Below, piece by piece: positions 1-64,000 of a stretch of DNA of 64,000 nucleotides; within the stretch, counting starts at the first letter, position 1; every line of letters begins with the position of its first letter. The position numbers were made by a program, and so were the translations under genes. The stretch is taken from contig CAWGMQ010000006.1 of assembly GCA_963823665.1 (NCBI GenBank), positions 480,001 to 544,000 of the forward strand. Reading direction: 5' to 3'. The notes under the pieces were generated by a model. The model had not been told where the DNA came from. It saw nothing but the letters and a program-made list of their open reading frames with translations, and made no database searches. This stretch comes from an uncultured Planctomycetota bacterium (lineage in GTDB: Bacteria > Planctomycetota > Planctomycetia > Isosphaerales > Isosphaeraceae).

Positions 1-3000
1 ACGCTCACGATCAGGGGCGTGGAAGGTGACCCCAGGGTCCCGGTGCCCGCTTTCAGCACGGTGTTGCCGGGCGTCGTGATCTGAGTGCCCGTGCCGCTGC
101 CGAGGATGCTGCCCTGGGCGGTGATGTTCACCGCGCCCCCGGCGGTCACCGTGTTCAGGGTCAGGTCTGGGGTCGTACCCTGAACGGTGATCGACCCCGT
201 GGCGGTCGCGTTCAAGTCGCCGGTGGACGAGATAAAGACCTGCGAGTCCGGCGAGACCTCGACGTCGCCCCCGGACGTGACGACCACATCGCCCGGCGCC
301 GTCGCGTTCGCGATCGCACTTTCCTGGTTCGTCGTGAGGGTCCAGGACTGAACGTCCGCCATCGAGATGTCCACCGCCGCGCTGGTCTGGCCGATGCTTC
401 CGCCCGTCACCAGCGTCACGTTCGCCCCGGAGATGTTCGGCGTCCAGATCCCGACCGGGGTGCCATCCGCGGGGTCCACCGCCACCTCGGCGACCGGGTT
501 CATCAGCTCGGCGTTGGTCCAGGTCGCGTTGCTTTCGAGGTTGGACACCTGCTGTGATGTCGCGACGTAGCTGAAAGTTAGGTCGTCCGCCTGAAATTCG
601 GGCTCGGACATCCAGTTCGAGTCGAGGTTCTGGTTGAAGAAGCTGACGTAGTCCTGGTACTGCGAGTTGGCGTACCCTTGCACCTGTGCTGTCGTGGGGT
701 TGGTGATGTCCAGCGCGAGGGCCGCCTGCCCACTGTAGAGCGCCACGGCCGGGGCGTTCAGGGTGAAGACACCGTCCAGGACGGTGCCGTTGTCGAGCAA
801 TTGCCAGTACGCCACGTAATCGGCGTTGACCTCGTTCTGGAAGGCGGTGATCGCCTGCTGCTCGCTGGCGGCCGGGGCCGTCAGGCCCAGGCTCGTCCAG
901 ACTTGCTGGCTCTGGGGGCTGTCGACTTGATCGGTCCAGGTCGTGCCGCTGGCGTTCACGATCGACCCGGAGGGCACGTCGATGGTGACGTCGCCGGTCG
1001 TCGAGACGATCTGGCCGACCTGAAGGCTCGTGCCGGCCTGGGTCAGGTCGATGTCCTGGAGCGCGGCGACATTGACGACGCCTTGCGCCTGGATCACGAG
1101 CGGCGCGGCCGCCGTGCCGACCGCGCCCTCCGTGGAAGTGAGCGCGATGTTGTTCCCGGTGACGTTGACGGTCCCGCTCGGCAAACCGGGCGCCACGGTG
1201 AGACTACCGGTCGCGCTCAGGACGACGTCGCCGTAACCCGTCGAGCGGTTGCCGGCACTTACTTCGCCGAGCAGTGCCCCGGAGCCCAGGTTGACGTACA
1301 CGCCCTCGCTGCCGGCCTGGGCGTTCAGCACCCCGTTCGCCGTCAGGTTGGCGTCGATCGGCTCCGTCGCGGTGCCGACGCCGCCGCCGGTCGCGGTGAG
1401 CGTGAGGTTGTTGGTTGTGATGGTGGCGGACGGTTCCTGGGTGATGCTGGGGGCGGTGATCGTCGTGTCGCCCAAGGGATTGGCGATGTTCCCCGCCAGG
1501 ATCACCGGCGTGTCCGAGGTGATGCTGACCGTGGCCTGGGACGAGCCGGAGAAATCGATGCCGATGGGGTTGTCCGCCTTGACCGACTCGGTCAGGGTGA
1601 GCTCCGCCTCCGTGGCGAAATAGTATGCCCAGGGGTCCTCCACGAGATCGTTGTCGGATGAATCGTCCACTGGCGGGTCGGTCGGAGCGAAGCCGTAATC
1701 CCCATTGTGGTAGATGTAGTCTGCCATGTACCAATTCAGCACGTTGCCGCTGATTGTTTCCTCGAATGCGGGGAGCCCGGCATCGACGACCGTCCAGCCG
1801 GCGGGTTGGCTGCTCGCGTCGGATATGTCACCGTTCGGCGAAGTCAGGTAATACCACGGGTCGTTCTCGGGGTTTCCTGACACCGCCGTATAAGCCCACG
1901 GACTCGCCGAGAAGGGCGCCTCGCCGGTTCCGCTGTTCTGCGTGATCGTCCGGGTGAGGTCCGTCTGCAACTGCCACTCCCAGCGCAGTCCCGCTTCGGG
2001 GGAGTAGGACGTCGAGCTCCCCTGGATCACGGCCACGGGCGAGCCCTGTTCCAACTGCTGCTGGGTCTGGCCGGCCGTGCCCTGGTACTCGTCGATGACG
2101 CTGCCCGGCTGGTAGACGAACAACGTCTGTTCGGTGGCCGCGGGCTGGTTCGTATCGATGATATCGACCCCACTCAGCGAGGTCGAAGTCGTCGATTTGC
2201 TGGCGGACACGTCGTTCACCACGATGGGGTAATTCGTCGTGTTGTCGATCGTCACCTGGCCCAAGTCGGAGTTGACGTTGAGCTCCCCGAACGTGTTCGT
2301 GCTCATGATCGCGCCGTCGAGCGAGATGAAGCCGCCGGATGAGGCGCTCACGTCGTTCACGATAATCTGCCCGGTGATCGCGTCGTACTCGGCGGTGATC
2401 TGCGTGTCGCCCGGCGAAACCGTGGACGCGGGCAGGGTGTAGTATCCCCGGGCGTCACCCGGCGTTGTCGAGTAGGTTCCGTTGTTGTAGTCCAACTGGT
2501 CCTGGGCGATGGTGCTGTTGAGCGAGGCCGGCAGGCTGAGCGAATCGTTGCTGGGCTGCCCGACATTGATCGGCTCGTTGACGTCGACGTACAAGGCGTT
2601 GATGAAGACCGCGGCGGCGTCGATCGCGCTGGCGCTACCCAGTGTGAGGCCCTCCGTTCCGGTGACAGTCGCCGGCGCCGAAAGCGTGACGTTGGAGAGG
2701 GTGATGGGCTCGTCAGCGTTTCCCGGAGCGTCGCTCGCAACGGGCGCCGAGATTTGAACGTCATAAATATTGCCGTCCTGGAAGGCGATTGACTGGACCG
2801 TCGTCCCTGTCGAGATAAAGTCACCGGTGACGGTAGAACCGATGACCGGCGCTGGCCCGTTGGAGATCACCAGGACCACAGCCGCTCCTGGATCCAGTTC
2901 GAGCGTAAAGGTGGCGTTGCTTACCGCGATCGTCGTCCCCGGCGCGATGCCGGTGCCGGTGATTTCCTCTCCGGTGAACATACCCGTCACACCGTCAGGC

Positions 3001-6000
3001 ACCGTGACCGAAGTCGATCCGCTGGTCAGCGAGCCGGTGAAGGTTGGTTGGTAGGCCGCAGTCGTGACGGGCAGCGGCTCAACGGGGACCACGGGGACCT
3101 CGCCCCTGCCGGAAATGTCGCCGAACTGGTAGGCGCCATCGACCGGACTGTCCTGCGCCGCTTCCTGCGGGGTGATCACGGTGCTATCCCCCGTGTTGGC
3201 ACCCAGGAATTCTACACTGGTGCCGGCTTGGGGCGCCCCATTCACGATGTCCGGCGCGGCGGGTTCGTCATTATAAAGGCCTTCGCCCGGGTCGTATGCA
3301 AAGCTCAAGGGCGGCGTCTGGCCGACCGTGCCGATCAAGTCCTCGGTGAAGCCATCGTCACCGGTGCCGCTCCCTCGGGCGGATATGCTGAAAGGGCCGC
3401 TCCCGATATCCGAGGGGTCGCTGCCATACTGGCCGTCCGCATTGAACATGGAGTTTGCCACAAAGGCCACGTAGACGCTCGCCAGGTCCGAGGGCATGAC
3501 GGCGTCGGTGTAGGGGTCGTAAAAGTCCGGCCAGTACATGGCGGTGTCCCAGTCCGTAGCCGGCGTCCCGGCGTTGCCCGAAAGCCCGGTCGGGTTGCTG
3601 ATCGCGGTGACGCCCTTCTCGGTGGTGAAGTTCACCTGACTGGCGCTGACGCCGCCCGCCTGGATCAATGACCCGTCCAGGACGGTGATCGCCACCTGAC
3701 CCCCCTCGTTGTCTACGCTGCCGCTGGGGTCGAGCGTGACATTGCCCAGGTTGTCCATCGTGGCGGTCGCGAACACGGACGGCCCTGGCTCAGTCGAGTC
3801 CGAAGAAGCAGGAACCGGATTGCCGTACAGTTCCTGGATGTTCACGACGGGGTGCGCGTTCGAGCCCGACTGAGTGATTTGCATCGATGACGGAGCGCCC
3901 ACCGCCAGTCCGGTGTAGACGACCTGGCCGCCGGGCTCGTCCGGGATGTTGATCGAGTCGAGGACGAGGTAATCGGGGCTGTTGTTGGTGACGGTGATCG
4001 TGGGCCCTCCGTAGGCGGTGATGGAACCATCGCCCTGGAACGCGCCGGCGCTCACTGTCACGTCGCCGCCCGCGGCGAACAGCGTGCCGAGCACCATGGC
4101 CCCGACCGGCCCGTCGTGAACCGCGTCCTCGTCCGCCATGGCCTCGCCCGAGTCGGGAAACTCTCCATCGGCCGCGGCGGCCACGATGGTGTTGTAGGGG
4201 TTGAAGCTCGGATCGAAACTGGCCGTGAAGGCGGCGGTGTCAGCGGGGCTCACGAGGTTCGCCGCGGGCGCGGTGCTGACCGAGGTGAGCGTACTGCCGT
4301 TCACGGTGACATCGTTGCTGTAAAAGCCGCCCGGTGCGCTCTGATTATCGGGTATCGTGATGTTGAGCGTGTGGAGGTAGCCGGCCGTGATGGACCCGTC
4401 CATCGTCACGCTCGAGCCCGTCGAGACACTGGGCTTGCTGCTGCCGTCCGTTACCGGGATGAAGCCCAGTTCGTAACCGTGGCCAATCCCGATCGCCGTC
4501 GCGCTGGGCGTGCCGTGGTCCGCCGCGAGCGTGGTGTTCTCTCCGCTCTCGATCTGGTCGCCCGCACCGACGGTCAGCGTCGCATTGCTGGTCAGGTCCG
4601 TGGTCGCCGAGGCCGCTGGGATGGCGACAAAGCTGCGGGCGTACGACTGAGCATTGGAGTTGCCCACCATGGGCTCGGCGGCCAGATCGCCGGGTGTGGG
4701 GTCGTCGCCGGCGGTGAGGTTGATGTTCTGTGCGGCCGTCAGGTTCGTGTCGGGGCCCAGCGCAACGGTCTGGTTCGACGTCACGCCGGTGAGAGCCGAG
4801 GAAGAGGCCACCGCACCGAGCACGCCCCAGGTGTGGGCCTCGCTGGTGCTCGCGGCGTCTACGCTCGAAAACGTGCCGATCCCGATGTTCTGATTGGTCG
4901 CGAAGACGTCGGGGCCCGAGGTCGTCGAGTCGGTCGTCACGTTGTTGTTCAGCGTGGCCGTGAGGGACGAATCGGTCCCGGCCCCCTCGAGCACGCCGCC
5001 CGACCCCAGCGAGACCTGGTCATTCGTGTTGAGCACACTCGAAGCGGTCAGTAAGATGCCGGGTGTGCCGGTGCTTTCGGCGCTGGCGGTCGGCACGTCG
5101 ATCGTGACCGAGCTTTCGATCGTGACGTCGGAGTTGCCGGTGATCGTCGTGGTGCTCAGGGCGGCCGTGCCGTTCAAGAAGCCCCCCGCCCCGGCGGAAA
5201 CCGTGTTCCCACTCGTCGGCAGGTTCTCCGTGAAAGTGTTCTGCGCCGTGATGTCCACCGCGGAAGCGGCGACGATGAGGGTGTTGTTCCCGACCGTCGT
5301 GTCGGCCGCGGTGTTATCGGTGTTATTCGCGAGGGCGCCGCTGGCTCCCGCCAGGGCGGCGTTGGTGGAATCCACCTGAGGCGTGAACACGCTGTTGTTG
5401 ACGGCGCTCGCGTCGACAGTGCCGGCCATAAGGTCCCCGGCGATGGTCGCCGAGACCGTCGAGTCATCGGACGTCTGGCCGACCGCGGCGTCGCCCGCGA
5501 TCACTCCGCCGCTGCCCGCCGTAGTCGAGGCGTCGTTCTCGTCCGTCCCGTTCGCCGAGACGTCGAGCGTGCCCGCGACCATCACGGTCGCGCCGGCCCC
5601 AAGTTGGGCCGAGGTGTTGACGTCGGAGCTGGACACGGCCACGTCGGCGCCGATGCCGAGCAAGCCCCCCACCGCCACGCCGGTGGCGCTCGAGGACTGG
5701 AGGCTCTGGTTGTTCGCCTGGATGGAGACGCCGCCGCCCATCAGGACGACCGAGCTGCCCGTGCAAGCCTCGACCGTGCCGTTGCCCGTCGCCTGGCTCA
5801 CGGTGGCGTCGACGCCCGCGAGAATGCCGCCGGCGCCTGCGGTCGCCGTCGACTTGGCGGTCGGGTCGTTGTTCGAGTCCGGGGACCGCTCGGCGGAAAC
5901 CTGGATCGAGGAGGCCGAGATCGTGTCCCCGTTGCCGAGCGTGCTCGACGTTGTGCCGGACGAGCTCGCGTCGCTGATGACCACACCCACGGCCAAGCCC

Positions 6001-9000
6001 CCCGAGACCGCGACCCCCAAGGCCGTGGCGCTTGCGCTCGGTGTATCCTGGGCCGTAACCTGGACGGCTTCCGTCGCCAGGATCGAGGTGCCAGCGCCGA
6101 CGGCTGCCGTCACACTCGGCGCGACTACGGCATCGGCGTAGACGCCCGTCGCGCCACGTCGATCCCGGCCGCGACACCGTAGGCTTCCGCCGTCGCCGAA
6201 TCGGTTGCGGTGGCCCATACGTCCACGGTGCCGACGGGTGTGGTCTGGCCTATCTGAGCGTCCGAGCCGATCGTGGCCGACGGACCGCCGGTGGCGTTCG
6301 CAATCGCCACGCCCACGCCGGCCGCGTAGGCGAGCGAAAGATTTCCGCCCACGGCCTCTGCCGTCAGCGAGCGGTTCGACGAGGCCGTGACCTGCAACTG
6401 CTGGGCGCTGGCAATCGTCACCCCGTTGCCCAGGCTCGCGGTCTCGGTGCTCGAGTCCTGGATATCGACGACCTGGGCGCCCACGGCGGCGGCTTCTCCG
6501 GCCGTACCCGCGAAGGCCGTGCCCTTCGAGGTGTCGTTTGCAAGCACGGCATTGACCGTGACGTTACCGCCGGCACTTACTGTCGAGGCGGCGTCGATAT
6601 AGGCCTGGGTACTCCCTTGAATGTTGGCGATCTCGACCGACGCTCCCAAGCCGACGCTGCCCACCGACAGACCGCCGGTCACGGCGACGTAATTGACTTC
6701 GCTTTGTGCCTGCACGTTGACGTTGCCCCCCGCGGTTACAGTGGCGGGCGAGACGCCGGTCGAACTTGCGCCGCTCGGAATACCGATAAACGCCACCGTG
6801 CCCTGCGGCGGAGTTGTTGTGCTCGAGAGTGCGCTCGCAACCGGATCGGTGGTCACAGCGCCATTCAAGCCGCTCTGGGCCGAGCCCATCGTGGAGCTGA
6901 TGTATTGCGTGTTGCCGGCACCTCCGTTGAGATCCGGGTTGGTCATTTCGGAGAGCATCGACGTCGCGCCGCCGGTCTGGCCTTCCGCGTTCGAGCTGTC
7001 GGTGGTCACTCCACTGTTGTTGCCCAGGCTGGCCACGGTCTTGGTTTTTGCGGTCGTGCCGGTTCCGTCGGTGTACGCGTAGTCTGGGCTATACGCCTCG
7101 CCGATCGACCAGACCGACACCGCGCCGATCAAGGCGAGCGAAGCCCCCGCGGCGGCACCGATCACGTACGTTTTCACGGCGTCGTTCGATAACGCGTAGA
7201 CGTCGACGTCTTGTTGTGCGTTCACGTTCGCCCCCGCGGCGATGTAGGCGACCGTCGAGTTATTGAGCAGACCGACGTCGACACCACCGGCAATGCCGGC
7301 ACCGCCCAACGCCAGACCCCCCGCAAACGAGAAGTTGGTGGCCTGGTTGACCGCCGCAACGTCCACAGCCTGCGCCGCACTGACTCCCAGACTACCGCCG
7401 ATCGCGCTATCAACGCTTTGCACCGTTCCCGTATTGACGCTGGCATCCGTGCCGATATATGCCTGCGTGGTCGAATTGAACAGCTCGACTGTGACGCCGC
7501 CGCCCAGGGCATCGTCGCCTCCGGCCGCGCCGGCCGCGGCAACGTTCGTCACGTTCTCACTGGTAGAGGCCTGCACGGCCACGCCATGGAATGTGGCGAG
7601 GGTCTCGAAGCGCCTGAAGCGGTGTAGTTTCCATCGAAGATTCCCGAGATGCTCGGGGTGTCGCCCAGCGCGTTGACCGTAGCATTCTCGCCAATAAACG
7701 CACTCGTGTTCTTGATCAGATCGACAATGCTGACCGCGGCGCCGATCGCATCACCTATGCTCAAAGCCACGCTTCCGGTGATCATGTAGGTCACCGTGTC
7801 GTCGGTGGAGTCAACCAGCACGTTCCCGCCGGCGTTCACCTGCGCACCAGTCGCTTCTGACGTGGCGGTCGAGCCGATATTGGCCTGGGTCGTGTCGTTG
7901 ACCTGGACAAACGCGATCGAGCCGGCCAGGACGGTCTCGCCGATGGCAGCCCCGGCGGCGATCGTGAGGATGTCGCCGCTGGAATGAGCCAAGACTTCGA
8001 CGTTGCCCAGCGCGGCGACTGATGCGCCGTCGTCAATCGACGCCTCAGTCGTGTTGTTGATCACCAGCACGACGGCACCCGGCGTGAGGCCGGAAGCAGC
8101 GAACGCCGCTGCGAAGGCGACGCCCAGAAACGCTGCGTCGTTGCCGGCGGCGACCAGCACCGCCTGTGTGCTCGCTGCGCCCGCATTGCTCGAGTTGATC
8201 TTCGCACCCGAAGCGATGTAGGCGGTTGTGTCATTGGTCAATACCGCGACCGAGCCACTCACGTTGAGCGTCTCACCGCCCACTGCCGCGTCGACGCCGA
8301 CTCCCTGGATGTTGTCGCTATTCACGGCCGTGACGGCCAGGCCGTGAACCGACGTCGTCTCGGGCGTCGCAACTCGCTGGTCGATCAACCGCTCGCTGGT
8401 AAGGCTGTTGCCAGAGCCCGTCAGGTTCGCACTCACCGAGGGAGGGGCCGGCGCTGCTGCCGAACTGCCGTAGGGCACATAGGTGACGGAGAACTGGCCT
8501 GTGTCAGCAGAGATGGCCGTCCCGAGCCCCAGCGCGGTAACCGTCGCGCCTGACCCGACGTACGCCTCGGTCGTCTTGCTGACGACAGGCACGGTCACGC
8601 CGGCGCCTAAGGCCGCCAGGCCAACGGCCAGGCTCCCCGACAGCAAGTTAATCGTGTTCGCCTCCGACGCCGCGACCAGGATGCTGCCGTCCGCCGTGAC
8701 GGTGGCGCCGGCGCCGATATAGGCCTCGGTCGTAAGGTTCATCACGAAGACCCCGGCTGCCCCGGCAAGCGCCAGGCTGGCGAACCCCTCTTCGAGGTTC
8801 GGGTTGATGGCGACGACCGCCGTTCCATTGATCGAGGCGACATTCTCTGTCGATTTGGCCTGAACCAGCACAGTGCCGGCAGCAGTGACGGTGCCCGCGA
8901 TATAGGCCTGGGTGGTCTTGCTGATCGAGTCGACGTTGGCTGCGATGCCCACGCCGACATCAGTACCAACGGCCAGGGCGCCGGCCGTGCTGAAGAGAAC

Positions 9001-12000
9001 GAGCGGGTCGGCCGCCGTGACCGTCACCCCCGGTCCGCTGCCAGGCGTGCCGTCGCTCTCATCGAGGTTTGCCCCGCTTGCAACATCGGCCAGAGTCGTG
9101 TCGGAGATGACATTGACTGCTGCCGAGCCGGACACAGCAGCCGAAGTGTCCGAAGTGGCGACCGAGCCTCCGACAGCGACGGCCTGCACGTTCTGAAACG
9201 TCGCCGCGATGACCGCCACGCCAGTGACTGGCGTCGTGTCCCCGGGGTTGCTGTCGGTGTCGCCCGTGAGGACCCGAATCGTGCCCGTGGTCCCGTTGGC
9301 CGTGATCTGATCATTCGCCCCGATGTATGCATCCGTCTTGACGGTATCGACGACCGTCGAGACTGCGGCGCCCGCGGCAACCTCGCCGCTTAAGCTGAGC
9401 TGGCCCGCGACGGTGCTTATTGTCGCCTGGCGGCTCGCCTGAACCAGCAAGTCTCCCTGGGTGTCGACCGTCACGCCGGTCGCGATGTACGCGGTCGTCG
9501 TCGGCTCGTTCGCCGGCGGCGAGATCACCTCGATCGACGCGGCGCCGGCGATCGCCGCCGAAGCGCCGAGCGAGCCCGCCGCCGTGATCGACTGAAAATT
9601 CCCGTTTGTGCTGGCGGTGACCTCGACATTCTGGGCCGCGTCAACCGTCGCGTTCGAGTCAATGTAGGCCTGGTCGCTCTCGGTGACGATGTTGACGTCG
9701 AGCGCAGCGCCGACGCCGACGTCGTTGCCTCCGCCGATCGCGCCGGCCCAGTCCCGGATCGTCATCGACTCGGTCGCCGAGACGGTCACACCTTCGTCGG
9801 CATTGGCCGTTGGGTAACCGGCCGTGCCGACCAGCGTATTGATCGATGCTCCACTGCCGATATACGCAAGTGTTGTCTGTGTAATCACGTTGACGTCGAA
9901 CGAGCCGGCGATCCCGACGCCGCCCGATGTGCCCGCGCCCACGGCGAAGTCCGTCGGGTGGGGCGCGGACGCCGGAAGCGACGTGAGGGCCAGGGCCAGA
10001 GCGTCTAAGGGATTAGTGGGGATGGACTCGATGAGGGTCACCGGCTCCGTGGTCGACAATGTTTTCGTCGGGTTAAAAAGCTCGATTCGGCCGGCGGCCA
10101 GTCCTGCGGCTCCGTTGGCAATTGCGGGCAACGACAACGTCAGCACAGTGGCGTTCGCCGTGGTGCAAATGTGCGTGATCGTCGTATCAGGCAGGATGCC
10201 GGGGCCGCTGAGCGTGTCCCCAACCTTCGGCGTCTTTAACGGATCAAGAAACGTCGTGTCGTCTGATGCGACCACGTTCGACCCGAACGTCAGGACGCCG
10301 GTGAAAGGTATGCTATCGACTTCGGTGATCGCCGTCCCGGTTGGAATACCGGTGCCGGAGACGAGGTCTGACGTACCGACGGTGGCGGCCGGAGGAGGCG
10401 TCGTCGTGTTGATAACCGTGCTGTTGATGCCATTGACGTCATAGTACGTCACGCCGGCGACTTGCTCTGCGGTCAGTGAGGCGCCGGTGGCGGTGATCGT
10501 ATCGGCCGGCGAATTGGGTACGGGGTCCTGAGACGGGATGAGCGACGACTCGGCGGTGACCTGCGTCGTGTCGGCCACATTCGCATTGACGCCCGAATCG
10601 AGGAATGCGTTGGTCGTGTTGTTCAGGACGTTGACATTGACGGCTGCGCCTGCGCCTACTTCGCCGCCGGTGGCCACGGTGAAGGCGATGTTCTGAAGGG
10701 TCTCGTCGTTGGCGGCTTGGTCGCTCAAGCCGCCAAACGAGTTGACAATCGAGCCCGTGCCGATCGACGCCGTGGTCGTGAACGTGATGACGTTGATCCC
10801 GACCGAGCCCGCGACGCCAACCTGCGTTCCGATCGCGATACCCAGCCCCTGCGTCGAGAAATCATTCACCGCGCCGCTCACCATGAGCGCGGTGACGCTC
10901 ACGCCGTCCGCGGAGATCGTGTCCGAGGAACCGATCGTGGCCGTGTTGGTCACGTTCACGACGTTGAGCGAGACAGCGGCGCCGATCGAAGCCTGGTTCA
11001 CGGTCGCCCGCCCGTCGGCCAGGGCGAGGGCGCTCGTTTGGTTGGTGGTGCCGACCGCTAGCTCGCCGCCGGCCGTCACGCTGAGATTGTTACCGATCTC
11101 TGCGACCGCGCTGGTCGAGAGGTCGTTGACGGCTACGGCCGCCGCGATGCCCACTTTGGTCTGGCCGCTACTGCCGCCCGATTTGCTGGTGGCCGAGCTC
11201 GAGGGCGAGGTCATTTCGCTGTTGGAAGAAGGGGGAGCGGTCATATCCGAGCCGCCCTCTTTATCCGCGAATTCGGCCTGGTTATTAGACTCCTGGTCCG
11301 CAGTCCCGCCGCTGCCTGAGCTCGAGCCTTGGCCGGAGCTGGGGCTCGAGGCAGGAGCCCCGCTCTCGCTCGCGATAGCGGCGGCCTGGCTGGACGCGGT
11401 CACAGGGTCGGCCGTGACGCTGACGGCCCCGCCGGCAACGACGTTGCGGTCGAGCTCAGCCTGAAACGTGTCTGTCGCCACGTTGACGACCACCGATGCC
11501 CCGACCCCGACGCTCCCGGTCGGATCGGCCGCGGCGGCAGCCACCGAGTTCACCGTGAACGACCCGCTCGCTCCGATCGTGAGATCGCCCGAGGCATTGA
11601 GCGTCTCTGTGTCCGAGCTGACGGTGGCCATCGTCTGACCGCTGGCGATCACGATGGCGATGCCGCCGCCGAGCGCCACCTGGCCCGCCCCCCCGTTTTG
11701 GGCCCAGGTGAGGATCGTCTGGGACGAGCCGGCGGTGACCGTGACGTTACCGGCGTTCGTGAGCGCGGCTCCGTCCTGGACCTCGGAGTCGGTGGTGTTG
11801 TTGATGATGTTCAGGGCGAGCGACGCGCCGAGGCCGAGGCTGCCGCCCGTGGCGGGTGACCCGGGTATCGCGAACGTCAAATCGGTCGAGTTGTTCAGGG
11901 AGGTCACCGAGACATCGCCGCCGTTGGCGTCGACCGAGGCGCCGGGCGCGATCAGGGCCTGGCTGGTGTTCGTGACGATGTTGATCGCCACCGCTCCGGC

Positions 12001-15218: not shown

Positions 15219-15251
15219 CTTTAGCCGAGAGCCGTCGCAGAACTTCGCCAA
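15219..15251 (-). promoter_or_regulatory. Candidate ECF-type promoter, copy 2: TTGGCG-N18-CGGCTAAAG, preceded by an A7 tract
   Basis: Same half-sites and spacing as 15075..15107 but an unrelated spacer sequence; the copies are 144 bp apart. Confidence 0.6.
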
Positions 15252-15380
15252 CTTTTTTTCGGAAATCGACGTGATTGTGACTCTGACTGCGGGCGTGTTA
15301 TCGCTTGCGGACCCGCGTTGCCACTACTAGAATCTAGAATCGTTCGAGAGCGTTATGCCACTATTCTCTCTCTCCGGGGA

Positions 15381-15946
15381 ATGATGTCCCTTTCGGGCGA
15401 TTCAAGAGTGTCCGCGGTGCTCCAGGCGGCCCAAGCCGGGGACCGACAGGCGGTGACTGACCTCTTACCGCTCGTCTATGCCGAGTTGCACGAGCTGGCG
15501 CGGCGCGACTGGCACGCCAGCGGCCGGGCCACACGCTGACGCCGACGGCGCTCGTCAATGAGGTGTACCTGCGGATTGCCGACGACACTAATGTGACGTG
15601 GGAAGGCCGGCAGCACTTCCTGTTCGCTGCCGCGCGCGCCATGCGCGACATCCTGGTTGAACAGGCGCGCCGGAAGGCGGGGCCGAACCGGGGCGGCGGC
15701 CAGCGGCGCCGGGAGCTGGACGAGGCGTGCGCTATTCTTGAGCCCCCCTCGGACGACGTGCTGGCGGTGCACGAAGCACTGGAGGAACTCGAAACGCGCG
15801 ACCCGCTCAAGGCACAGATCGTCCTCCTGCGCTATTTCACCGGGTTGACCAGGGATGAGACCGCGGCGGTTCTCGGGCTGGCCGAGCGCACGCTCGACCG
15901 GCATTGGCGGTACATCCGGGCCTGGCTCAAGCAGCGGCTGAGCTAG
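15381..15946 (+). CDS. ECF RNA polymerase sigma factor (TIGR02999/ECF43-like, kinase-associated); frameshift near 15503
   Basis: Joined translation: AAQAGDRQAVTDLLPLVYAELHELA...RPGHTLTPTALVNEVYLR...HFLFAAARAMRDILVEQARRK...LRYFTGLTRDETAAVLGLAERTLDRHWRYIRAWL, i.e. sigma2 plus a sigma4 HTH. It lies directly upstream of a kinase. Confidence 0.9.
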
Positions 15947-43638: not shown

Positions 43639-43644
43639 GATGGT

Positions 43645-47204: not shown

Positions 47205-47242
47205 TTTTTCGTGTCCCGGCAGTACCCCTTTGCGCAGTTCTA
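47205..47242 (+). promoter_or_regulatory. Candidate ECF promoter TTTTTC-G-TGTCCCG-N13-GCGCAGT-TCTA
   Basis: Matches the motif upstream of the ECF gene at 43645..43683; about 110 bp upstream of the giant gene ATG, on the same strand. Confidence 0.65.
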
Positions 47243-53300: not shown

Positions 53301-56300
53301 AACGTCATCTCGGGGAATACCGGCGCAGGAATCACCATCAGCGATACCGGTACGTCCGGTAATGCGGTCGAAGGCAACCTCATCGGCACGAAGGCCGGCG
53401 GCACCTCAGCACTGGCGAACAGTACCGACGGGGTGCTGATCCAGACCAACGCCTCGAGCAATACGATCGGCGGCACCGCGGCCGGCGCGGGCAACGTCAT
53501 CTCGGGCGACACGACCAACGGCGTGGAAATCACGGGAACGGGAACATCGAGTAACGTCGTCGAGGGTGACTACATCGGCACCGACTTGACGGGCACGGTG
53601 GCGATCGCCAATGCCACGGGCGTCGAGATCGATACCAGCGCCTCGGGCAACACGATCGGCGGCAGCGCCGCGGCTGCGCGCAATATCATTTCCGGGAACT
53701 CGTACGGGGTCACTCTGAATGACACAACGAGCGACGCTGTCGAGGGTAACTTTATCGGCACGGACCTGACGGGTTCAATCGCCGTTGCGAATGGCATCGG
53801 CGTTCTGATCTGGGCCAGCGCCACGGGCAACACCATTGGCGGGCCCGCCACGATGACCGGCACCGCACCGGGTAATGTGATTTCAGGCAATTCGGGACCG
53901 GGCATTTTCTTCGACAACAACGTTGCCAGCACCGGTGACCTGGTTGAAGGAAACCTGATCGGCACCAATGCCGCCGGCACGGCGGCGCTGGGCAACGGCG
54001 TCGGAAACGGCGGCATTTACATCCTGAGCGATGGCAGCGCCACGCATGAAACGATCGGCGGCACGGCGGCCGCCGACCGCAATGTGATCAGTGGCAACAA
54101 TGGCGCGGGCATCGACATCCTGAACGACAACAGCAACCTGATCGAGGGCAACTACGTCGGCCTCGACATCACGGGCGCGTCGGCGGTACCGAATCTGGAC
54201 CAAGGCATTCAAATCGTCGGGTCGAACGATAATACCGTCGGCGGCACGGCGCCCGGCGCCGGCAATGTCATCAGCGGAAACCGGTACAACGCCACTGCGG
54301 GCCAGCAAGTGGTGATCAACGACGAAAACTTGGCGACGCAAACCGCTTCAGGCAACCTCGTTCAAGGGAATTTGATAGGAACGAATGCGGCTGATACCGG
54401 TCTGCCGTCGGGAATGAGCTTCGACTACGACGGGACCGGTGTGGAAATCCTCGGCTGTGCCACCGGCAATACCATCGGCGGGACGACAGCGGGGGCCGCC
54501 AACGTGATCGCCGGCAATGCCACGGGCGTCTTTATTGGCTCCGTGGGATTTCTGGCTGGAGGTACAACTTCCGGCAACGTCGTCGAGGGGAACGATATTG
54601 GCGTCGAGGCGAATGGAACCACCGCACTGGCCAACACGGTGGGCGTCTTGATCCAGTCGGGCGCGGGCAATTCCTTGACCGACGACAACACCTTGGGCGG
54701 AGCCACGGCCGTGGCCGCGAACATCATCAGCGGCAATACCACATTTGGAATCGAAATCTCCGGCAGCACCGCGACCGGGAATGTCGTCGAGGGTGACTAC
54801 ATCGGCACCGACCTGACGGGCACTGTGGCGATTGCCAATGGAACGGGCGTCGAAATCGATACGAGCGCCACGGGCAATACGATCGGTGGTCTCACGAGCA
54901 CCGCCGGCACCGGCGCGGGCAACGTCATCTCGGGTAATAGCAACTACGGTGTCTGGGTCGTCGCCGCAACTTCGAACGCCATCGAAGGCAACCTGATCGG
55001 CACCGGCGCCACGGGTACGGTCGCGGTCGCCAATGGGCTTTTCGGAGTCAATGCCGATACGGGGGCCAATAACACGACCGTCGGTGGGACCGTCGCCGGC
55101 GCGGGCAATGTGATCAGCGGCAACACGAGCTACGGGGTCGTAATCAACTCGTCCGGCAGCCTCGTCGCCGGCAACCTTATCGGGTTGAATCGCGCCGGGA
55201 CCACGGCGGTGGCGAACCTGTCGAGCGGGATCAAGCTTGTCGGGGCGAACAACACCGTCGGCGGTATCACCGCCGTTGCCCGCAACGTCGTTAGTGGCAA
55301 CACGCAGAATGGGATCTTGGTCACGGGCGTCGGGGCGACGGGGAACCTGATCGAGGGGAACTACGTCGGTACCAATGCCGTCGGCAGCGCTGCCGTTCCC
55401 AACAATTCCGTCGCCTCGTACCGGGGCATCCTCATCAACTCCGGGGCCCAAAACACCACAGTCGGCGGCAGCACCGCCGGCGCGGGCAATCTCCTGTCGG
55501 GGAACCTCGGTTGGGGTCTTGAAGTCGACGGCCCAGTGACCGCCAACACGGTGATCCAGGGCAACCTGATCGGTACCGACGCCACCGGAACCTTCGCCGT
55601 CGGGAACGGCTTCAGCGGCGGTATCATCATTTACCGTGCGATTAGTACGACGATCGGTGGGACGACCGCAGCCGCGCGAAACCTCGTCTCGGGCAACCAA
55701 TCCGCCGGAATCCTTGCTGAAGGAACGGGCTTGTCCCAGTTGCTCATCGAGGGCAATTACATCGGTACCAACTCCGCCGGCAGCGCCGCGATCCCCAACA
55801 ACGACACCGGGGTGTACGTCGAGGATCTGGCGGCGAACGTGACGATCGGAAGTGCCGTGGCGGGCGGGGGCAACCTCATCAGCGGTAACGGTTACTGCGG
55901 GATCTATGTGACAAATCAAGATGGTGTCGGAGTCGCGACGAACGTCGTCATTCAGAACAACTCGATCGGCACCAACGCTTCTGGCACCGGCGCTATACCG
56001 AACCTCGCGGGCGCCGTCGGAGGAACCGGCGTGTACGCTGGTTCCGGGGTCATTATCTACAACGTGCCGAACGTCGTCGTTGGCGGATCTTCTGCCAACA
56101 CTCGCAACCTTATCTCAGGCAACGCGGCATACGGAGTCGCGATCTCCGGCTCCGCCTCCACGGGGAACCAGATTTTCGGCAATTTCATTGGCTCAGACGT
56201 CTCAGGCACTGTGTCGCTCGGTAACGCGACCGGCGTCATCATCCAAAGTGGAGCGACAAGCGACACCATCGGCGGCACGGCCGTCGGCGCGGGCAACCTG

Positions 56301-59300
56301 ATCTCCGGCAACACAACCTTTGGTGTTCAGATCACGGGTGCGGGCGCAACGAGCAACGTCGTCGAGGGGAACCTGATCGGCACGGGCATCACGGGGACGG
56401 TGGCAATCGCCAACGCCACGGGCGTCGAGCTCGATACCGGCGCCACCGGCAACACGATCGGCGGCACGTCGGCCGGGCGCGAAATCTCATTTCGGGGAAC
56501 CTCTCCTATGGCGTGTCAACCGATACCACCGCGGGGGCAAACGTAATCGAGGGCGACTACATCGGCACCGATGCGACCGGAAATGTCGGGTTGTCCGATG
56601 GGACCGGGATCGACATCGCCTCGGCGGGCAATACCATCGGCGGCACCGCGTCGGGCGCGGCAAACGTGATCGCCGGGAATGACGGCACGGGCTACTCCAC
56701 CGCCGGTACGCAAATATTCCTGGACACTTCCGCGAGTGACAACCTGGTTCAGGGGAATTACATTGGCCTCGGAGCCGACGGCCTTGCCCTGGCCGGCGCG
56801 ACCGGCTCCGGCGTGTATATCAACCATGCGACTGGAGAGACGATCGGCGGCGTCACGGCCGCGGCCCGGAACGTGATCTCGGGAAATTCAGGGGCTGGTG
56901 TTGAGATATTGGGCGGCTCCGACAACCTGATCGCGGGCGACTATATCGGCACCGATCCGACGGGCACTACAGCCATCGGCAACGGCCCACTGAACTCAAA
57001 CAATGACGTCGCGATCGGAGGCGGCGCGACGAACAACACCGTGGGCGGCACGACATCCGGCGCCCGCAACATCATCTCCGCCGGTGGATTCGGCGTCTAC
57101 GTCTTTGGTCCGGCAACGACGGAGAACCTCGTCGAGGGCAACTACATTGGCACGGACAGCACGGGCACCGTGGCCCTGGCCAACGTCGTCGGAGTTGGTC
57201 TCTCCTCGTCAGGTGGCGGCAACACGATCGGCGGCGCGACCTCCACGCCCGGGACGGGAGCGGGCAATCTCATCGCGGGTAACAGCGACCAAGCCGTGGG
57301 ACTTGGCTCGGAGCCCGACGGGGACGTGATCCTGGGCAACGTGATCGGTGGAGTTGCCATACCGGGCGTCGGCACGTCGCCGGAAAACTTGATCGGCATC
57401 GGGGTGGGGGGCAGCACCGGCTTCGAGATCGGCGGCACGAGCCCGCAAGACGAGAATGTCATCTCGGGCAACACGGCCTATGGGGTGGAGATCTCCGGCA
57501 GCTCAAACAGTCTTGTCCAGGGTAACCTGATCGGCACCAACCTCCCCGGAAGCTCTGCCGTGCCCAACCAGATCGGCGTCTTGATCGAGGGCGGCTCGAC
57601 AAACATCACGATCGGCGGCACCACCGGCTCGCCCGCCAACGTGATCTCGGGCAACACGATCTACGGGTTACAGATCACGGGTGCGGGCACATCGAGCAAC
57701 GTCGTCGAGGGTGACTACATCGGTACCGACGTCACAGGCGCGATGGCGATTGCCAACGGCACGGGTGTCGAGATCGAAGTCGGCGCATCGGACAACACGA
57801 TCGGCGGCCTGACCACGACGCCGGGCGCCGGGGTGGGCAACGTGATCTCGGGCAACTCCAATAACGGGGTCTACTTGAGCGATGCCGGAACGGCCTCCAA
57901 CGCCATCGAAGGGAACCTCATCGGGACCGACGCAACCGGGTCCGCGCCGCTGGGGAACGTGGGCGACGGCGTCGCCGTGGAGGCCGGCGCGACCGGGGCC
58001 ATCATTGGCGGGGCGACCGCGGGCGCGGGCAACGTCATCTCGAACAACAGCAACTACGGCGTCTACATCGACGCGAGCGGGGCCGTAGTCCAGGGTAACT
58101 TGATCGGCCTCGATTCAAGCGGCGTCAATGTCATGGGCAACTCTTACGGGGTCGGTATCGGTGCGAACGGCGTCACCGTCGGCGGCACGACCGCGCTCGC
58201 GCGGAACGTGATCGCGGCGAGCGCCGTGGACGGCGTCTTGATCGGGTCGAGCTCCGTCCTGGTCGAAGGGAACTTTATCGGGACCGACGCCTCGGGAGCT
58301 CATGCCCGGGGGAACAACCAAGGCATCGTCACCAACATCGGGGGCAGCAACACCATCGGCGGCACCGTGACCGGCGCGGGAAACCTGGTCTCCGGCAACA
58401 CCACCGATGGCATCGACTTGGATTTGTCCAACAGCAACCTCGTTGTCGGCAACTTGGTCGGTACAGACTCGACCGGAAATCTCCGGCTGGGCAACGAGTA
58501 CGGACTGGCGGTATTCGGGTCGAGCAACACAATCGGCGGACTGACCGGCGCCAGCGCCGGGAACGTGGTCTCTGCCAACCTCTTCGACGGCATCATCATC
58601 GCCTCGGGCACCGGCAACCTGATCGAGGGGAACGACGTCGGGACCAACGCGGCCGGCACCGCCGCACTGGGCAACGGGGCCTTGGGCGCCATCGATGTCC
58701 AGAGCGGCCCGAACACCGTCGGCGGCACGACCGCCGGGGCCGGCAACCTCGTCTCGGGCAACCTCTCGGACGGCATCATCCTCACGAGTTCCGCAAGCGC
58801 TGTCCTGGTTGCGGGCAACATCGTGGGCTTGAGCGCCTCCGGCAACGCCGCGATCGGCAATGTCCTCGGCATCGAGATCGACGGGTCGAACAACACGATC
58901 GGCGGCACCACCTCCGGCGCCGGCAACGTCATCTCGGGGAACACCGGCGCCGGCGTCGAGTTAAACGGCGCGGGGGCGTCTGCCAACGTTGTGGTGGGCG
59001 ATGATATTGGCACCAATGCCGCGGGCACCGCCGCCTTCGGCAATGGCAGCGACGGTGTGGAGATCACCAACAGCGCCACGGGCGACACGATCGGCGGCAC
59101 GACGGCTGGGGCGGGCAACGTCATCTCCGGCAACACAGGCGACGGCGTCGAGATCACCGGCACCGGCACGACCGGCAACCTCGTCGCGGGCAACTTGATC
59201 GGCACCGACTCAAGCGGCACGGCGGCGCTGGGTAACCTCGTTGCCGGCGTAGAGATCGACACGGGCGCCTCGGCCAACTTGATCGGCGGCACTACGGCTT

Positions 59301-62300
59301 CGGCCCGTAACATCATCTCCGCCAACGGCTATTCCGGTGTGCAGATCTACGAGGCGAACGACAACCTCGTCGAGGGCAACTACGTCGGCACCGATAAGAC
59401 CGGGACTATCGCCTTAGGCAACAACGTGGGCTCCGGGGCATTTGGCGACGGTTTCGGCGGCGTCACGCTTGACGGTGGTTCTTCCGGCAATACGATCGGC
59501 GGCCTCACCGCGACCCCGGGCTCGGGCGCCGGTAACGTCATCTCCGGGAACATCTTCGCGGGAGTGTTATTGTACTTCGCCGGATCCGACAATTTAGTGG
59601 CCGGCAATCTGATCGGCACTGACTCGACCGGCGGCGTTGCCCTGGGAAACCTCATCGATCCCCTATTGAACTATGGCGGGGCCGGCGTCGGTGTTGAGTA
59701 CTCGAGCGACACCACCGTGGGTGAGCTGGGCGGGCGTAACGTGATCTCGGGCAACGGCCCCGGCACCGTCGACGGTACCAACGTTTACCTGTTGAGCTCC
59801 ACCGGAAGCGTTGTCCAGAGCAACTTTATCGGTACCGACATCACCGGGACCGTCGCCCTCTCCACCAATACATTGAACGGCGTCTATTTCCAATACGGGT
59901 CGTATACGATCGGCGGACTCACGCCGACGCCGGGCACGGGACTGGGCAACGTCATCTCGGGCAATTCGATCGGCATTTATTACTCGGGCGATACCGTGCC
60001 CGACGGCGTCAACATCGAAGGCAACATCATCGGCGCCGATGCGACCGGTACGCACGAGCTGCCAAACCCCAATGGGGGCATGATTTTCTATCAGGTCAGC
60101 CTTGTCACGATCGGCGGCACCGCGGCCGGCGCGGGGAACCTGATCTCGGGAGATAATCGCCCCGGCAGCGAGGGCGACATCTACCTGGATGATTCGACGG
60201 ATAACGCGGTCAAGGGCAACTTCATCGGCACCGACATCACGGGCAAGTTCGGCCTACAGGCCCTGCCAGGCGATCAGAACGGCATCGGCGTGAACATCGG
60301 ACTCGGATCGACGGATAACACCATCGGCGGCATCACCGCGGCGGATCGGAATATCATTTCCGGCGTGGTCAACGGCCCCGGCGTCTACATTTTCGGCACC
60401 GGCACAACGGGCAACACGGTCGAAGGTAACTTCATCGGCACCGACTTGACGGGCAGTGTCGCGATTGCCAACGCAGTCGGCGTTGAGATCGAAACGGGGG
60501 CGAGCGGCAACCTGATCGGCGGCACAGCCGCCGGCGCGGGCAACGTCATCTCGGGGAACGCTGTCGACGGTATCGATATCGGCGGCACGGCGACGTCTGG
60601 AAACGTGGTGGCCGGCAATGACATCGGTACCGACGTCACGGGCACGGTCGCGCTGGGCAACCTGGCTGACGGCGTGGTGATTGACACGGGTGCATCGGGC
60701 AACTTGATCGGCGGAACAACGGCCTCGGCCCGCAACATCATCGCCGCCAACGATGGTTCCGGCGTGGAGATCGACGACGCGAACGACAACCAGGTCGAAG
60801 GCAATTACGTCGGCACCGACAAGACCGGGACCGTCGGGCTGGGCAACAACCAGATCTTGAAGAACATCGCCGACGGCGGCATCTCGCTCGAAAACGGCGC
60901 TGCCGGCAACACCATCGGCGGACTCACCGCGACCCCGGGCACCGGCGCGGGGAACCTCGTCTCGGACAACGCCAACGGGGGGGTGGTACTCAACTACGCG
61001 GGATCGAACAATTTGGTGGCCGGCAACCTGATCGGCACCGACTCGACCGGCACGGTTGCTCTTGGCAACCTCCCCGACACCCCCGCGCTTTACGGCGGGT
61101 ATGGCGTCGACCTCAACTACTCGCCCGGCAACACGGTGGGTGAGCCGGGCGGGCGCAACGTGATCTCCGGCAACGGCGCCGTCGGCCCCGGCATCACCAA
61201 CACCGCCAACGTCATCGTGTATTACTCGTCCGGCAGCGCGGTCCAGAGCAACTTTATCGGCACCGACATCTCCGGGACCGTCGCCATCTCCAGCAACACC
61301 TACAACATGTACGTCGGAGGAGGGTCGTCGATCACGATCGGCGGAATCACACCGACGCCGGGCACGGGATTGGGCAACGTCATCTCGGGCAATAGCGGCG
61401 AGTTTGGCCTGGGTATCGCGGGCGTCACCGGGCCCGTCGTCGTCGAAGGCAACATCATCGGCGCCGATGCGAGCGGCGAGCACGAGCTGCCGAACGCGGT
61501 GTCGGGCGTCTTTCTCTCTCAGGCCAGCGGCGTCACGATCGGCGGGGCCGCGGCCGGCGCGGGAAACCTGATCTCGGGAGATAATCGATATGGGAACGAG
61601 GGTAACATCTTCCTGGATGATTCATCGGATAACGCGGTTGAGGGCAACCTGATCGGCACCGACATCACCGGCGAAGCTCGGCTACCTGCCCTCTCGGGCG
61701 ATGTGTACGGCACCGGAGTGATCATCGCCGACGGATCAAGCGGTAACACCGTCGGCGGCACAACGGCAGCGGCCCGGAACATCATCTCGGGAATCGACGG
61801 CCCGGGCGTCTACATCGGTGCGGAATTCGTCCCTGGCTCGGTCTCGTCCGGCAACGTCGTCCTAGGCAATTACATCGGCACCGACGCCGCGGAGACCACC
61901 GCCCTAGCCAACGACGGCGATGGCGTGGAGATCGCGACCGGCGCCACGGGCAACACGATCGGCGGCACCGTGGCCGGAGCGGGCAATGTGATTTCGGGCA
62001 ACACGAACGACGGCGTAGAAATCTCGGGCACGGGTACATCGGGTAACGCCGTCGATGGTGACTTCATCGGCACTGACGTGACAGGCACGGTGGCGATTGC
62101 CAACGCCACGGGCGTCGAGCTCGATGCCGGCGCCTCCGGCAACGCGATCGGCAGCATAACCGCTGGCGCGGGTAATACGATCGCGGACAACACGGGTGAC
62201 GGCGTGCAGGTCGTCGGCAACGGCACGACCGGCAACCCGATCCGTGGTAACTCGATTTTCGGCAACGGCGTCCTGGGCATCGAGCTCGGCACGAGTGGGG

Positions 62301-64000
62301 TGCCCTCGACCAACGTTCTCGGTGGATCGACGAGCGGGCCGAACAATGACGAGAACTACCCTGTCCTCACGATCGTGAGCTACACGCCCGGCGTCGGCAC
62401 GACCATCGCCGGCGATATCAACACCGCGCCGAACACCACTGTCTTCGTCGATTTTTACACCGATGCAGTCGAGGGCCAAGGAGGCTACGGCCAGGGCCAG
62501 ACGTATGTTGGCAGCGTGACTGTGACCACGACCAACGACGGTAACGCCTCGTTTACCTACCTGAGCACGTCCCTCCCACGGAACGCGATCGTTTCGGCGA
62601 CGACGACGGACCCGGGAAATACGTCGGAGTTCTCGCTCGACCAAGCTGAGGACACGCCACCGATCGCCGAGCTGGTTGCGCGGCCGAGCCCGGCGGGCTC
62701 TCCGGCGACCACCTTCAACGAAGGACAGACCATCACGTTCGACGGCTCGGGCTCGTTTAGCCCCGACGGCGATGCGCTCTCCTATACCTGGGATTTCAAC
62801 GATGGGACTCCGCTCGTCACCACCTCGACGCCGACGGAGACGCACGCTTATGACTACGACGGAACCTATGTCGTCACCCTGACCGTCAACGACGGCCACG
62901 GCGGGATCGAGAGCAACATCGACATCCTGACGATTAACAAGCTGCCGCCAACGATCACCTTCAACCCGCTGCCGGCGTCGCTCGCTGTGGGGACCACGCT
63001 TCACTTGACCGGCACGATCGACGACCCGACCCCGGACCTCGAGACCGTCGTTCTCAACTGGGGCGACGGCTCGTACCCCACGACCCTGCACTTGGCCGCG
63101 GGGAGCTCGACGTTCTCGGTCTCCCACGACTACGCCTCGCCGCTTCCCGGGGGCGCGACCACGGCCACGCTCGGCGCGACCGTGACCGACGCCTCCAACC
63201 CAGCCGCGTCGCCTAAGCCGTCACCCCTCGGACCCCTCTCGCCGACGCCCACATTCGATGTCGGCGGCTTGAGCGGATCAACCTCGGCCATGCTGACGGT
63301 CTTTCAGCAAGTGCCCACGATCGCCGGTCTGACCCTCAGCCAGTCCACGGTCAACGTCGGCGGCACAACCACGCTCTCGGGGACGATCGTGGACCCGAAC
63401 CCGGTCGTCTCGCACACGGTGACGATCCAGTGGGGCGATCCATCCCCCGCGACCACCCTGGATTTGCCCCCCGGCGACCTGGCGTTTTCGAGCGCGCACC
63501 AGTACGACAGCACTCCCGGCGACTCGCTTTCCGGCGCGTGGCCGATCGATGTGACGGTCGTCAACAGCAATCTCCTCTCGGGCGCCGTCGCGCCGCCCGC
63601 CGTCACCGCCGTCGACGTGTCGCCGGTCGTTCAGATAGAGAGCCTTCCGCTCTCGACCGCGGGCTCGCTCGTCTCGCTGCTCGCCAACGCAATCGAGCCG
63701 CCGGGAACGATCAACCAGCTCACCTACCAGTGGACCCTCACCACCGGCGGTGCCTTCTACGCATCGGGGACCGGCCAGACCCTTTCGTTCGTCTCGATCA
63801 GCGGCGGAGTGTTCACGGCGACAGTCGTGGTCACCGACCAGGACGGCGCGACCGGGCAGGCCAGCGCGCAGGTTGTCGTCGGCCCATCGACTCCGAATAA
63901 CACCGTCATTTTCAATCCGGCCGGCGGCGGGCTGGTCACGATCACGGCCGACGGCACGACCTCCAACCCATTCGCACCCGGCAACGGAATCATCTATTAC
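47352..64000 (+). CDS. Giant secreted parallel beta-helix repeat protein with LamG and PKD domains (>5,500 aa, 3' end beyond the window edge); frameshift near 56477
   Basis: Arg/Lys-rich N-terminus plus LEKRMMLA; ADSGAGSLRQAI; dozens of NTIGGT.AGAGN.ISGN...GN.IGTD.TG repeats; LamG-like segment about 50920-51560; PKD-like FDGSGSFSPDGDALSYTWDFNDG about 62650-62940. After GCCGGG at 56477 the shifted frame resumes ARNLISGN and is the same frame at base 64000. Confidence 0.9.

Follow-up and report, generated by a model that had tools for sequence, protein, structure and literature searches.

We analysed a 64,000-nucleotide stretch of the genome of an uncultured planctomycete of the family Isosphaeraceae (contig CAWGMQ010000006.1, positions 480,001 to 544,000), further called the window, at each end of which lies a giant gene accompanied by genes of an extracytoplasmic function (ECF) sigma factor and of membrane Ser/Thr kinases. 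We consider it probable that each of these two modules, A and B, is a private signal-to-surface cassette, made of a membrane Hanks kinase, its ECF sigma and a promoter specific for that sigma before a nearby LExR gene, i.e., a gene encoding a basic stretch followed by an LExR-type N-terminus, represented here by giants A and B. Judged from the sequences, the link between sigma B and giant B appears well supported and that between sigma A and giant A moderately supported. The source genome (G000) comprises 16.46 Mb in 12 contigs, is 91.9% complete and holds the window at G000:C6:480001-544000; G001 denotes a genome of the same genus, G007 and G009 other genomes, and L with a number individual loci or DNA stretches.

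In module A, as we propose, sigma A would be made from a weak housekeeping-type promoter and become active only after phosphorylation by kinase A1 or A2 at the Thr of its PTAL motif, and the phosphorylated sigma would then read motif A and transcribe giant A divergently. In module B the three-helix head of kinase B1 would cover region sigma-4 and hold sigma B at the membrane; a signal at the periplasmic WD40/TPR part of the kinase would lead to the release of the sigma, possibly with phosphorylation of the Ser in its DPSD motif, and sigma B would read motif B at two places, in front of giant B and, as a positive feedback, in front of its own operon. The sigma would travel together with its kinase and its promoter, with the cargo (as we call an LExR or secreted-type gene near a sigma) being exchanged.

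The original prediction, made from the letters of the window, held that each sigma-kinase module drives its neighbouring giant. This idea gains support from the position and orientation of the genes, from motif B, from the co-variation of cognate sites and from motif A following a sigma clade, but the modules are not fixed three-gene units and their cargo is exchanged. We rejected the idea that three or four genes form a fixed unit also outside the genus, the cargo gene differing between relatives. Within the genus the pairing is conserved: both modules are neighbours also in G001 (G001:C4:3978513-4004389), about 25 kb apart.

Sigma B and the promoter-like motif shared with giant B

Sigma B (43006..43638, minus strand) is intact and carries DPSD as its sigma-2.2 motif. 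It scores 152.7 bits against TIGR02984, below the curated cut-off of 183.75 bits, yet this is by far its best family, and we call it TIGR02984-like. Its stop overlaps the start of kinase B1 (38657..43009, minus), in which domain and transmembrane scans and a structural model find a three-helix anti-sigma-like head (42833-43009), a Hanks kinase domain, one transmembrane segment and WD40 together with TPR repeats, the frame being broken twice. On the other side lies the divergent kinase B2 (43837..46525, plus), to which the same scans assign one transmembrane segment and TPR repeats and no head, with a frame break near 45090. An ECF gene had been placed beside each giant; this is correct for the head-to-head arrangement of module A, but in module B 3.7 kb separate sigma B from giant B, taken up by kinase B2 and about 0.8 kb more. 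That each ECF gene lies directly upstream of a Ser/Thr kinase with a single transmembrane segment and with WD40 or WD40 plus TPR repeats was predicted rightly, and kinases A1, A2, B1 and B2 all have one hydrophobic segment and intact catalytic motifs.

Each giant had also been credited with a bipartite upstream motif of its own, and motif scans located both. The first copy of motif B (TGTCCCG, a spacer and GCGCAGTC; 43648..43681, minus) lies about 10 nt before the start of sigma B and is a candidate autoregulatory promoter, and the second (47206..47239, plus) lies about 115 nt before the start of giant B. Under two patterns, a full and a shorter one, exactly these two copies are found in the 16.46 Mb, and a reversed control gives none. 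Both are likewise present in G001, where the boxes before sigma B are kept and the spacer is changed. In other genomes, too, most of the close relatives of sigma B have the motif in front of them. A matrix built from the upstream regions of 30 clade sigmas alone gives the giant B site a score of 25.0, the top among 93 LExR upstream regions, and with it the 20 LExR genes near clade members outscore the 73 others (p=5e-4).

The link is further supported by co-variation. Among 26 sigmas having both a clear site of their own and an LExR neighbour (15 from G000 and 11 from other genomes, with locus L159 excluded), ten neighbours match the site of their own sigma at 14 or more of 16 positions, as against 0.5% of distant pairs (p=5e-5 by permutation with shuffled neighbours), and the variants TGTGGAC, TGTTTAC, TGTACCG, TGTCCGT and TGTCCTG are each shared pairwise by a sigma and its neighbour. 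An unanchored search for motifs common to sigma and neighbour upstream regions was less productive, reaching p<=0.05 in 9 of 42 TIGR02984-type and 3 of 28 ECF43-type pairs, some of these being inverted-repeat artefacts of shared intergenic DNA.

Three short CAGTAC repeats (window 47220-47265) overlap and follow the second copy of motif B and are possibly the site of a second regulator. About 400 bp of the DNA that separates kinase B2 from giant B (window 46530-46950) are missing in G001; they carry a sigma-70-like site directed at giant B (46604-46632), which we rejected as the giant B promoter for its position inside this stretch. Sites of motif B type also precede LExR genes without a clade sigma next to them, at G000:C4:2883584 (+) and upstream in L152, the latter with an apparent sigma remnant behind it; these may be orphaned or trans-regulated cargo.

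Sigma A and the motif that follows it

Module A begins with giant A (start at 14904, minus), head-to-head with sigma A (15381..15946, plus), after which come kinase A1 (15971..19947, plus) and kinase A2 (20004..23540, plus). Sigma A, whose sigma-2.2 motif is PTAL, has a frame break near 15505 and is intact in G001; in family scans its C-terminal piece reaches 133.1 bits with PF07638 (Sigma70_ECF) and 138.5 bits with TIGR02999 (cut-off 126.15). The two sigmas had been ascribed to different subfamilies, and this is what we find, TIGR02999/PF07638 on one side and a TIGR02984-like protein on the other. According to the domain and transmembrane scans kinase A1, broken near 16510, consists of a helical N-terminal head, a Hanks kinase domain, one transmembrane segment and WD40 repeats, and kinase A2, which is intact, has a head of the same type, a Hanks kinase domain, one transmembrane segment and WD40 repeats.

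Sigma A shares with ECF43 the PF07638/TIGR02999 domain, an uncharged motif with a conserved Thr in place of DAED, and a one-transmembrane Hanks kinase as the next gene with no separate anti-sigma gene. ECF43 as delimited in the excerpts of the supplement of PMC7826278 covers Proteobacteria only, with a TPR sensor and a GTC/CAG promoter, whereas sigma A has planctomycete relatives, a WD40 sensor and a different motif. On its sequence features it is filed here as ECF43-like.

Motif A (an A-tract, TTGGCG, a spacer and TCTCGG; 15223..15257, minus), located by motif scans, is the candidate sigma A promoter pointing at giant A. Its exact pattern has two copies in the genome, the second before an LExR gene divergent from the closest paralog of sigma A. 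Among metagenome relatives with at least 300 nt of upstream sequence, the motif faces outwards in 16 of 28 with 70% or more identity to sigma A, compared with none of 35 at 50-69%, the boxes being conserved and the spacer variable. None of the 28 divergent regions examined beside the close relatives resembles giant A; the readable cargo there consists, by eye, mostly of other LExR proteins and a few other genes, and one paralogous sigma has a giant A homolog as cargo in G001 (L151) and an unrelated LExR protein in G000. Motif A thus tracks the sigma clade through a changing neighbourhood, and therefore follows the sigma, with the cargo exchanged.

The operon of sigma A and its kinases has, by sequence reading, a putative weak housekeeping-type promoter (15305..15333, plus; TTGCGG-N17-TAGAAT), which scores below the threshold for a consensus that is that of Escherichia coli; similar elements occur in 7 of the 28 close and 3 of the 35 distant relatives. 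Homologs of giant A stand in diverse surroundings: an ECF43-like sigma with its kinase diverges from L146 and from L151, and by eye a sigma of another ECF type diverges from L156, and L155 comes after the end of a WD40 gene; L152 lies behind the apparent sigma remnant, and for L148 no sigma was seen within 1.5 kb. At G000:C10:1768525 (+) another LExR gene is preceded by a motif A variant (score 24.2), possibly the target of a different ECF43-like paralog.

Neighbourhoods of sigma factors across the genome

For the analysis of neighbourhoods 2.8 Mb of the 16.46-Mb genome was taken as sequence, including the flanks of sigma genes and 26 control tiles placed at round coordinates. The sigma set holds 57 strong PF07638 and 64 strong TIGR02984 matches, thus at least 121, from scoring the best 150 of 405 and the best 150 of 456 candidates; 99 of the 121 have a co-directional kinase gene immediately downstream. 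The sigma tree was built in a quick version. LExR N-termini were scored with a custom profile, the seed of which was drawn from all fetched DNA, the window included.

An LExR gene is found within 7 kb of 59 of the 121 sigmas and of 5 of the 26 tile centres; with the sigmas thinned to one per 20 kb the figures become 46/97 vs 5/26 (p=0.0075). Head-to-head LExR genes within 1.5 kb accompany 20 of the 121 sigmas, as opposed to 1.0% of control points. Two control tiles held other ECF genes beside LExR genes, and the control is therefore conservative. The orientation is strict: at the 99 kinase-coupled sigmas all 22 downstream LExR genes are co-directional, and all 16 within 1 kb upstream are divergent. 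The enrichment of giant genes near ECF-kinase pairs, expected in the original prediction, thus stands for LExR genes in general in G000, but giant size in itself (frames of at least 1,000 aa) is not significantly enriched, 19/97 vs 2/26 (p=0.12).

This last result belongs to a number of points that weigh against the cassettes. As many as 62 of the 121 sigmas, about half, have no LExR gene within 7 kb. In the cognate test 16 of the 26 neighbours carry no match to the own site of their sigma, and in other genomes an LExR neighbour is seen in 17 of 54 full-flank loci of sigma B relatives, a proportion that does not greatly exceed the 19% background of G000 and was obtained without a matched control. 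Related sigmas and genomes are not independent, and the p-values overstate the evidence. Before giant B, G001 is nearly identical over 350 bp, which makes the footprint uninformative. The pattern of motif A was derived from the window itself, its core deprived of the A-tract is at chance level, with 18 occurrences as against 12 of the control, no autoregulatory copy was found before sigma A, and the motif could be the site of another regulator; a homolog of giant A in G009 and another in G007 lack motif A or an adjacent sigma detected within 1.5 kb. The predicted complex of sigma B with the kinase head, discussed below, may stem from likeness to solved anti-sigma/sigma-4 structures.

It would be logical to ask, then, whether co-clustering alone explains the arrangement: two expanded families would pile up in variable regions, the sigmas would autoregulate or act elsewhere, and the giants would be run by other promoters. 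A genome in which such sigmas number at least 121 and LExR genes are many offers room for this, several homologs of giant B in G000 are not next to the sigmas listed, and the absences just described, of LExR neighbours and of cognate sites, fit it as well. The density of LExR genes is still raised at 7-10 kb from a sigma, 2.75 per 100 kb vs 1.44 beyond 10 kb, and therefore a regional effect also exists. The strict orientation bias (22/22 and 16/16), however, the restriction of motif B to the places before sigma B and giant B, the pairwise sharing of promoter variants and the fact that motif A tracks the sigma and not the cargo all speak against it, and we find co-clustering as the sole explanation unlikely.

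The same evidence has also to be read against the state of the locus. Both giants, sigma A and kinases A1, B1 and B2 are frame-broken by shifts of 1-2 nt, with at least ten breaks in the window or at its edge, and one may suppose that all of these genes are pseudogenes of a decaying locus, with the circuit dead in the source strain. But the breaks are only 1-2 nt long, there are no in-frame stops and the GC content at third codon positions is high throughout; genome-wide 40 of the 169 kinase frames that have an N-lobe are truncated; G001 reads through the sigma A break, leaving the ortholog intact, and breaks giant A elsewhere; and at the first break of giant A contigs from two other sequencing runs, which are short and belong to related strains and not to the source strain, have one extra base. 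The breaks are likely assembly indels, and decay of the locus is highly improbable. The cassette reading remains for us the preferred one, and the question of how each sigma would be switched can be taken up separately for the two modules.

Probable phosphorylation and a predicted kinase-fused anti-sigma head

A phosphorylation switch in place of an anti-sigma factor was suggested for both modules. It fits module A, with PTAL resembling the site in EcfP and EcfK, but fits module B less, where DPSD retains acidic residues and a head binding sigma-4 is predicted. Activation through a conserved Thr has been described for ECF43 sigmas in the excerpts of PMC13147305 and PMC8999054, which give the motif at this site as STTA in EcfP and QTTA in the ECF43 consensus. 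Sigma A has PTAL, and a Thr or Ser occupies the Thr position in 39 of 52 paralogs; one may therefore soundly infer that sigma A is activated by phosphorylation, which is probably its switch.

Non-ECF43 groups keep DAED-like motifs and may work differently, according to the excerpts of PMC8999054. In sigma B the Ser of DPSD replaces the Glu of DAED, as it does in 56 of 59 TIGR02984-type paralogs (counted by eye). Two of the three paralogs lacking the Ser of D-x-S-D, at G000:C5:1945206 and C6:863803, lack a downstream kinase as well.

The absence of an anti-sigma gene, also claimed earlier, holds for stand-alone genes, none of which was found in either module, but kinase B1 itself bears an anti-sigma-like head. 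This head, the 58 N-terminal residues of the kinase, is found in 74 of 80 related loci and is modelled as three helices (H13-25, H32-38 and H40-57; pLDDT 83.6); it has no relevant sequence match in Pfam or PDB, and the best hit in fold comparison (Z 5.3) is unspecific. The predicted complex of the head with sigma B scores 0.65, the best of three controls 0.02; the mark applied to this score is reached by 116 of 157 solved pairs and by 2 of 215 mismatched pairs. The runs agree in at least 79% of contacts, the partner pLDDT is at least 80, and helices 1 and 3 of the head touch sigma B residues 159-198, i.e., sigma-4. Only the 58 head residues were modelled, and the frame breaks just after them. 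The head is thus predicted to bind sigma-4 and would be a fused anti-sigma, and with such a head phosphorylation alone is probably not the switch in module B. On the strength of the model, the switch would probably be the release of sigma B from its anti-sigma, with or without phosphorylation.

Another reading of the same complex has both sigmas switched purely by phosphorylation, the kinase head being a substrate-docking domain that positions the sigma and does not inhibit it. A binding prediction cannot separate docking from inhibition, the Ser found in nearly all TIGR02984-type paralogs would suit a phosphorylation site, and conserved heads, of a sequence type different from that of B1, are present also on kinases A1 and A2, whose sigma is expected to be intrinsically inactive. 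Sigma B, however, retains two acidic residues, in line with the non-ECF43 groups, and the model puts the contact on sigma-4, a long way from Ser48 and on a surface blocked by anti-sigmas. This reading as a whole we hold to be possible, if rather doubtful, and we keep to a probable fused anti-sigma for module B.

The giant genes

A giant gene of LExR type had been foreseen at each end of the window, and both are present and longer than the window makes visible. Giant A (1..14904, minus) runs on to window position -7008, and giant B (47352..64000, plus) to 74868; when the flanks are included, their lengths come to 7,304 and 9,172 codons, in each case spread over three frames, with breaks near 7590 and 6150 in giant A and near 56480 and 64000 in giant B. 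The assignments come from open reading frames (ORFs) with flanks and from family scans.

At the N-termini a basic stretch is followed by LEKRTLLS in giant A and LEKRMMLA in giant B, which confirms the LExR-type start noted earlier, but neither N-terminus matches PF07595 or NF012209 in Pfam/NCBIfam scans. The custom LExR profile gives them 16.5 and 18.5 bits (both are in its seed), and giant A has a score of 0.92 with an Atlas cluster that bears the name 'putative LEPR-XLL'. Giant B contains GNxIG/ISGN beta-helix-type repeats, LamG, PKD, 22 RTX Ca-binding stretches and 8 Big_3_5 domains. The first piece of giant A has no match in a Pfam scan and 16 repeats of NF012206 (NCBIfam; LktA_tand_53-type); a model of residues 49-400 (pLDDT 87.6) consists almost entirely of strands, and Foldseek gives no match for it at E<=0.001. 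Extracellular repeat domains of the kind known from repeat adhesins are thus found in both, and no toxin domain was detected in either by Pfam/NCBIfam scans. From their domain content, the giants may be secreted adhesins, and may differ in fold.

A small LExR-type gene (23932..24990, plus; frame break near 24850), recognised by the LExR profile, follows right after kinase A2, and motif A was not seen there in the motif scan. Directly after giant B comes one more gene of LExR type (L003:10819-13029, +; about 700 aa), which has no match in Pfam and is possibly co-transcribed with giant B.

Neighbouring genes

The modules are separated by a middle segment of lower GC content (window 25232-33187) that carries unrelated genes, namely an unannotated ORF, a copper-monooxygenase-like protein, a sulfatase and a Uma2 protein, and is followed by a beta-lactamase-family protein (33189-34433), with no link of these genes to either module. 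Beyond it lies a kinase-AAA_16 protein (34485..38543, minus), which by domain, transmembrane and head comparison is soluble, has neither a transmembrane segment nor a head, and is probably not a receptor. Both this protein and kinase B2 were rejected as partners of sigma B: neither has the head, and the former also lacks the transmembrane segment. Outside the window, 4-22 kb past the end of giant A, there is a Tc-like toxin-complex cluster in several frames (G000:C6:450842-468685; L002:10842-20000 with L001:1-8688) with SpvB/TcdB, ABC_toxin_N and TcA_TcB_BD domains, and then a radical SAM gene and another whose match, of squalene-cyclase type, is weak.

Significance

We may suggest, tentatively, that planctomycetes hold dozens of orthogonal receptor-kinase/sigma/promoter cassettes per genome, each with its own promoter variant and an anti-sigma head fused to the kinase, and each coupled to a secreted protein that can be exchanged and is up to about 9,000 residues long. 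If so, this would be a modular control layer of one signal and one exoprotein, where one and the same receptor would sequester its sigma and phosphorylate it, and where the periplasmic WD40/TPR domain might sense the ligand or the product of the exoprotein itself. It would give a testable rule for how planctomycetes switch on their largest genes. The window offers two promoter candidates, named targets, a predicted sigma-kinase interface and paralogs with differing promoter variants, and the regulon, the mechanism of the switch and the orthogonality can therefore be tested directly; cultured Singulisphaera and Aquisphaera genomes also have sigmas of the B type and the promoter motif belonging to them. 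Naturally orthogonal sets of sigma, promoter and receptor could also serve as parts in synthetic biology.

Relation to known systems

Kinase-coupled ECF sigmas as such are already known and are numerous in planctomycetes, and in the literature searched, as far as excerpted, the promoters, the cargo swapping and the fused anti-sigma were not met. The excerpts, PMC12673574 and PMC8103513 among them, named no regulator of planctomycete giant genes, and the literature searched contained neither a promoter link of these sigmas to LExR or giant genes nor a kinase-fused anti-sigma; earlier surveys of ECF sigmas or planctomycetes may hold promoter logos or statements on neighbourhoods. Both giants resemble the planctomycete giant, LEPR-XLL and Planc_extracel proteins (PMC12673574, in excerpt) and the NF012206 LktA-type filamentous proteins in their very long repeats rich in G, A, S, T and N, their basic LExR N-terminus and their adhesin-type domains, and differ in that their N-termini miss the curated family models.

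Groups ECF43, 59-62, 217, 267 and 283 are described in the excerpts of PMC7826278 as kinase-associated and typically devoid of an anti-sigma, and the WD40/TPR domains of such kinases lie in the periplasm (PMC11032199, in excerpt). Sigma B comes close to ECF62s1/s2 of the same classification, being a planctomycete sigma followed by a one-transmembrane kinase with WD40 repeats, with a kinase as the next gene in 52 of 54 full-flank relatives. Kinases of ECF62 subgroups s1-s3 have an N-terminal zinc finger according to the excerpted supplement, whereas the consensus of the B1 head has no Cys/His zinc ligands. The excerpts of that supplement call the promoters of ECF61, ECF62 and ECF217 not conserved and name no target genes for these groups, although a Planc_extracel/dockerin/cadherin protein belongs to the context of ECF217s1; here a conserved, paralog-specific motif is found. 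The B1 head shares with class I anti-sigma domains (RseA, RskA, ChrR and RsiW; PMC7406223, in excerpt) its three helices; for helices 1 and 3 a contact with sigma-4, tabulated for those domains, is predicted, which may reflect likeness to solved complexes. The head differs from them by its fusion to the N-terminus of a receptor kinase, by having no Pfam match, and by showing no helix-4/sigma-2 contact in the 58 residues modelled.

The closest counterparts of module A are EcfP/PknT of Vibrio parahaemolyticus and EcfK/PknS of Xanthomonas citri, members of ECF43 (PMC13147305 and PMC8999054, in excerpt), with which it shares the Sigma70_ECF domain, the uncharged sigma-2.2 motif with a conserved Thr, the one-transmembrane Hanks kinase as the next gene and the lack of a separate anti-sigma. 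Unlike them it belongs to a planctomycete, has a WD40 and not a TPR sensor and contains two tandem kinases, and its candidate motif A differs from the ECF43 promoter 'GTC / CAG' (excerpted supplement of PMC7826278). The outputs of the known pairs are polymyxin-resistance or type VI secretion system genes, whereas the putative output of module A would be one divergent giant exoprotein gene.

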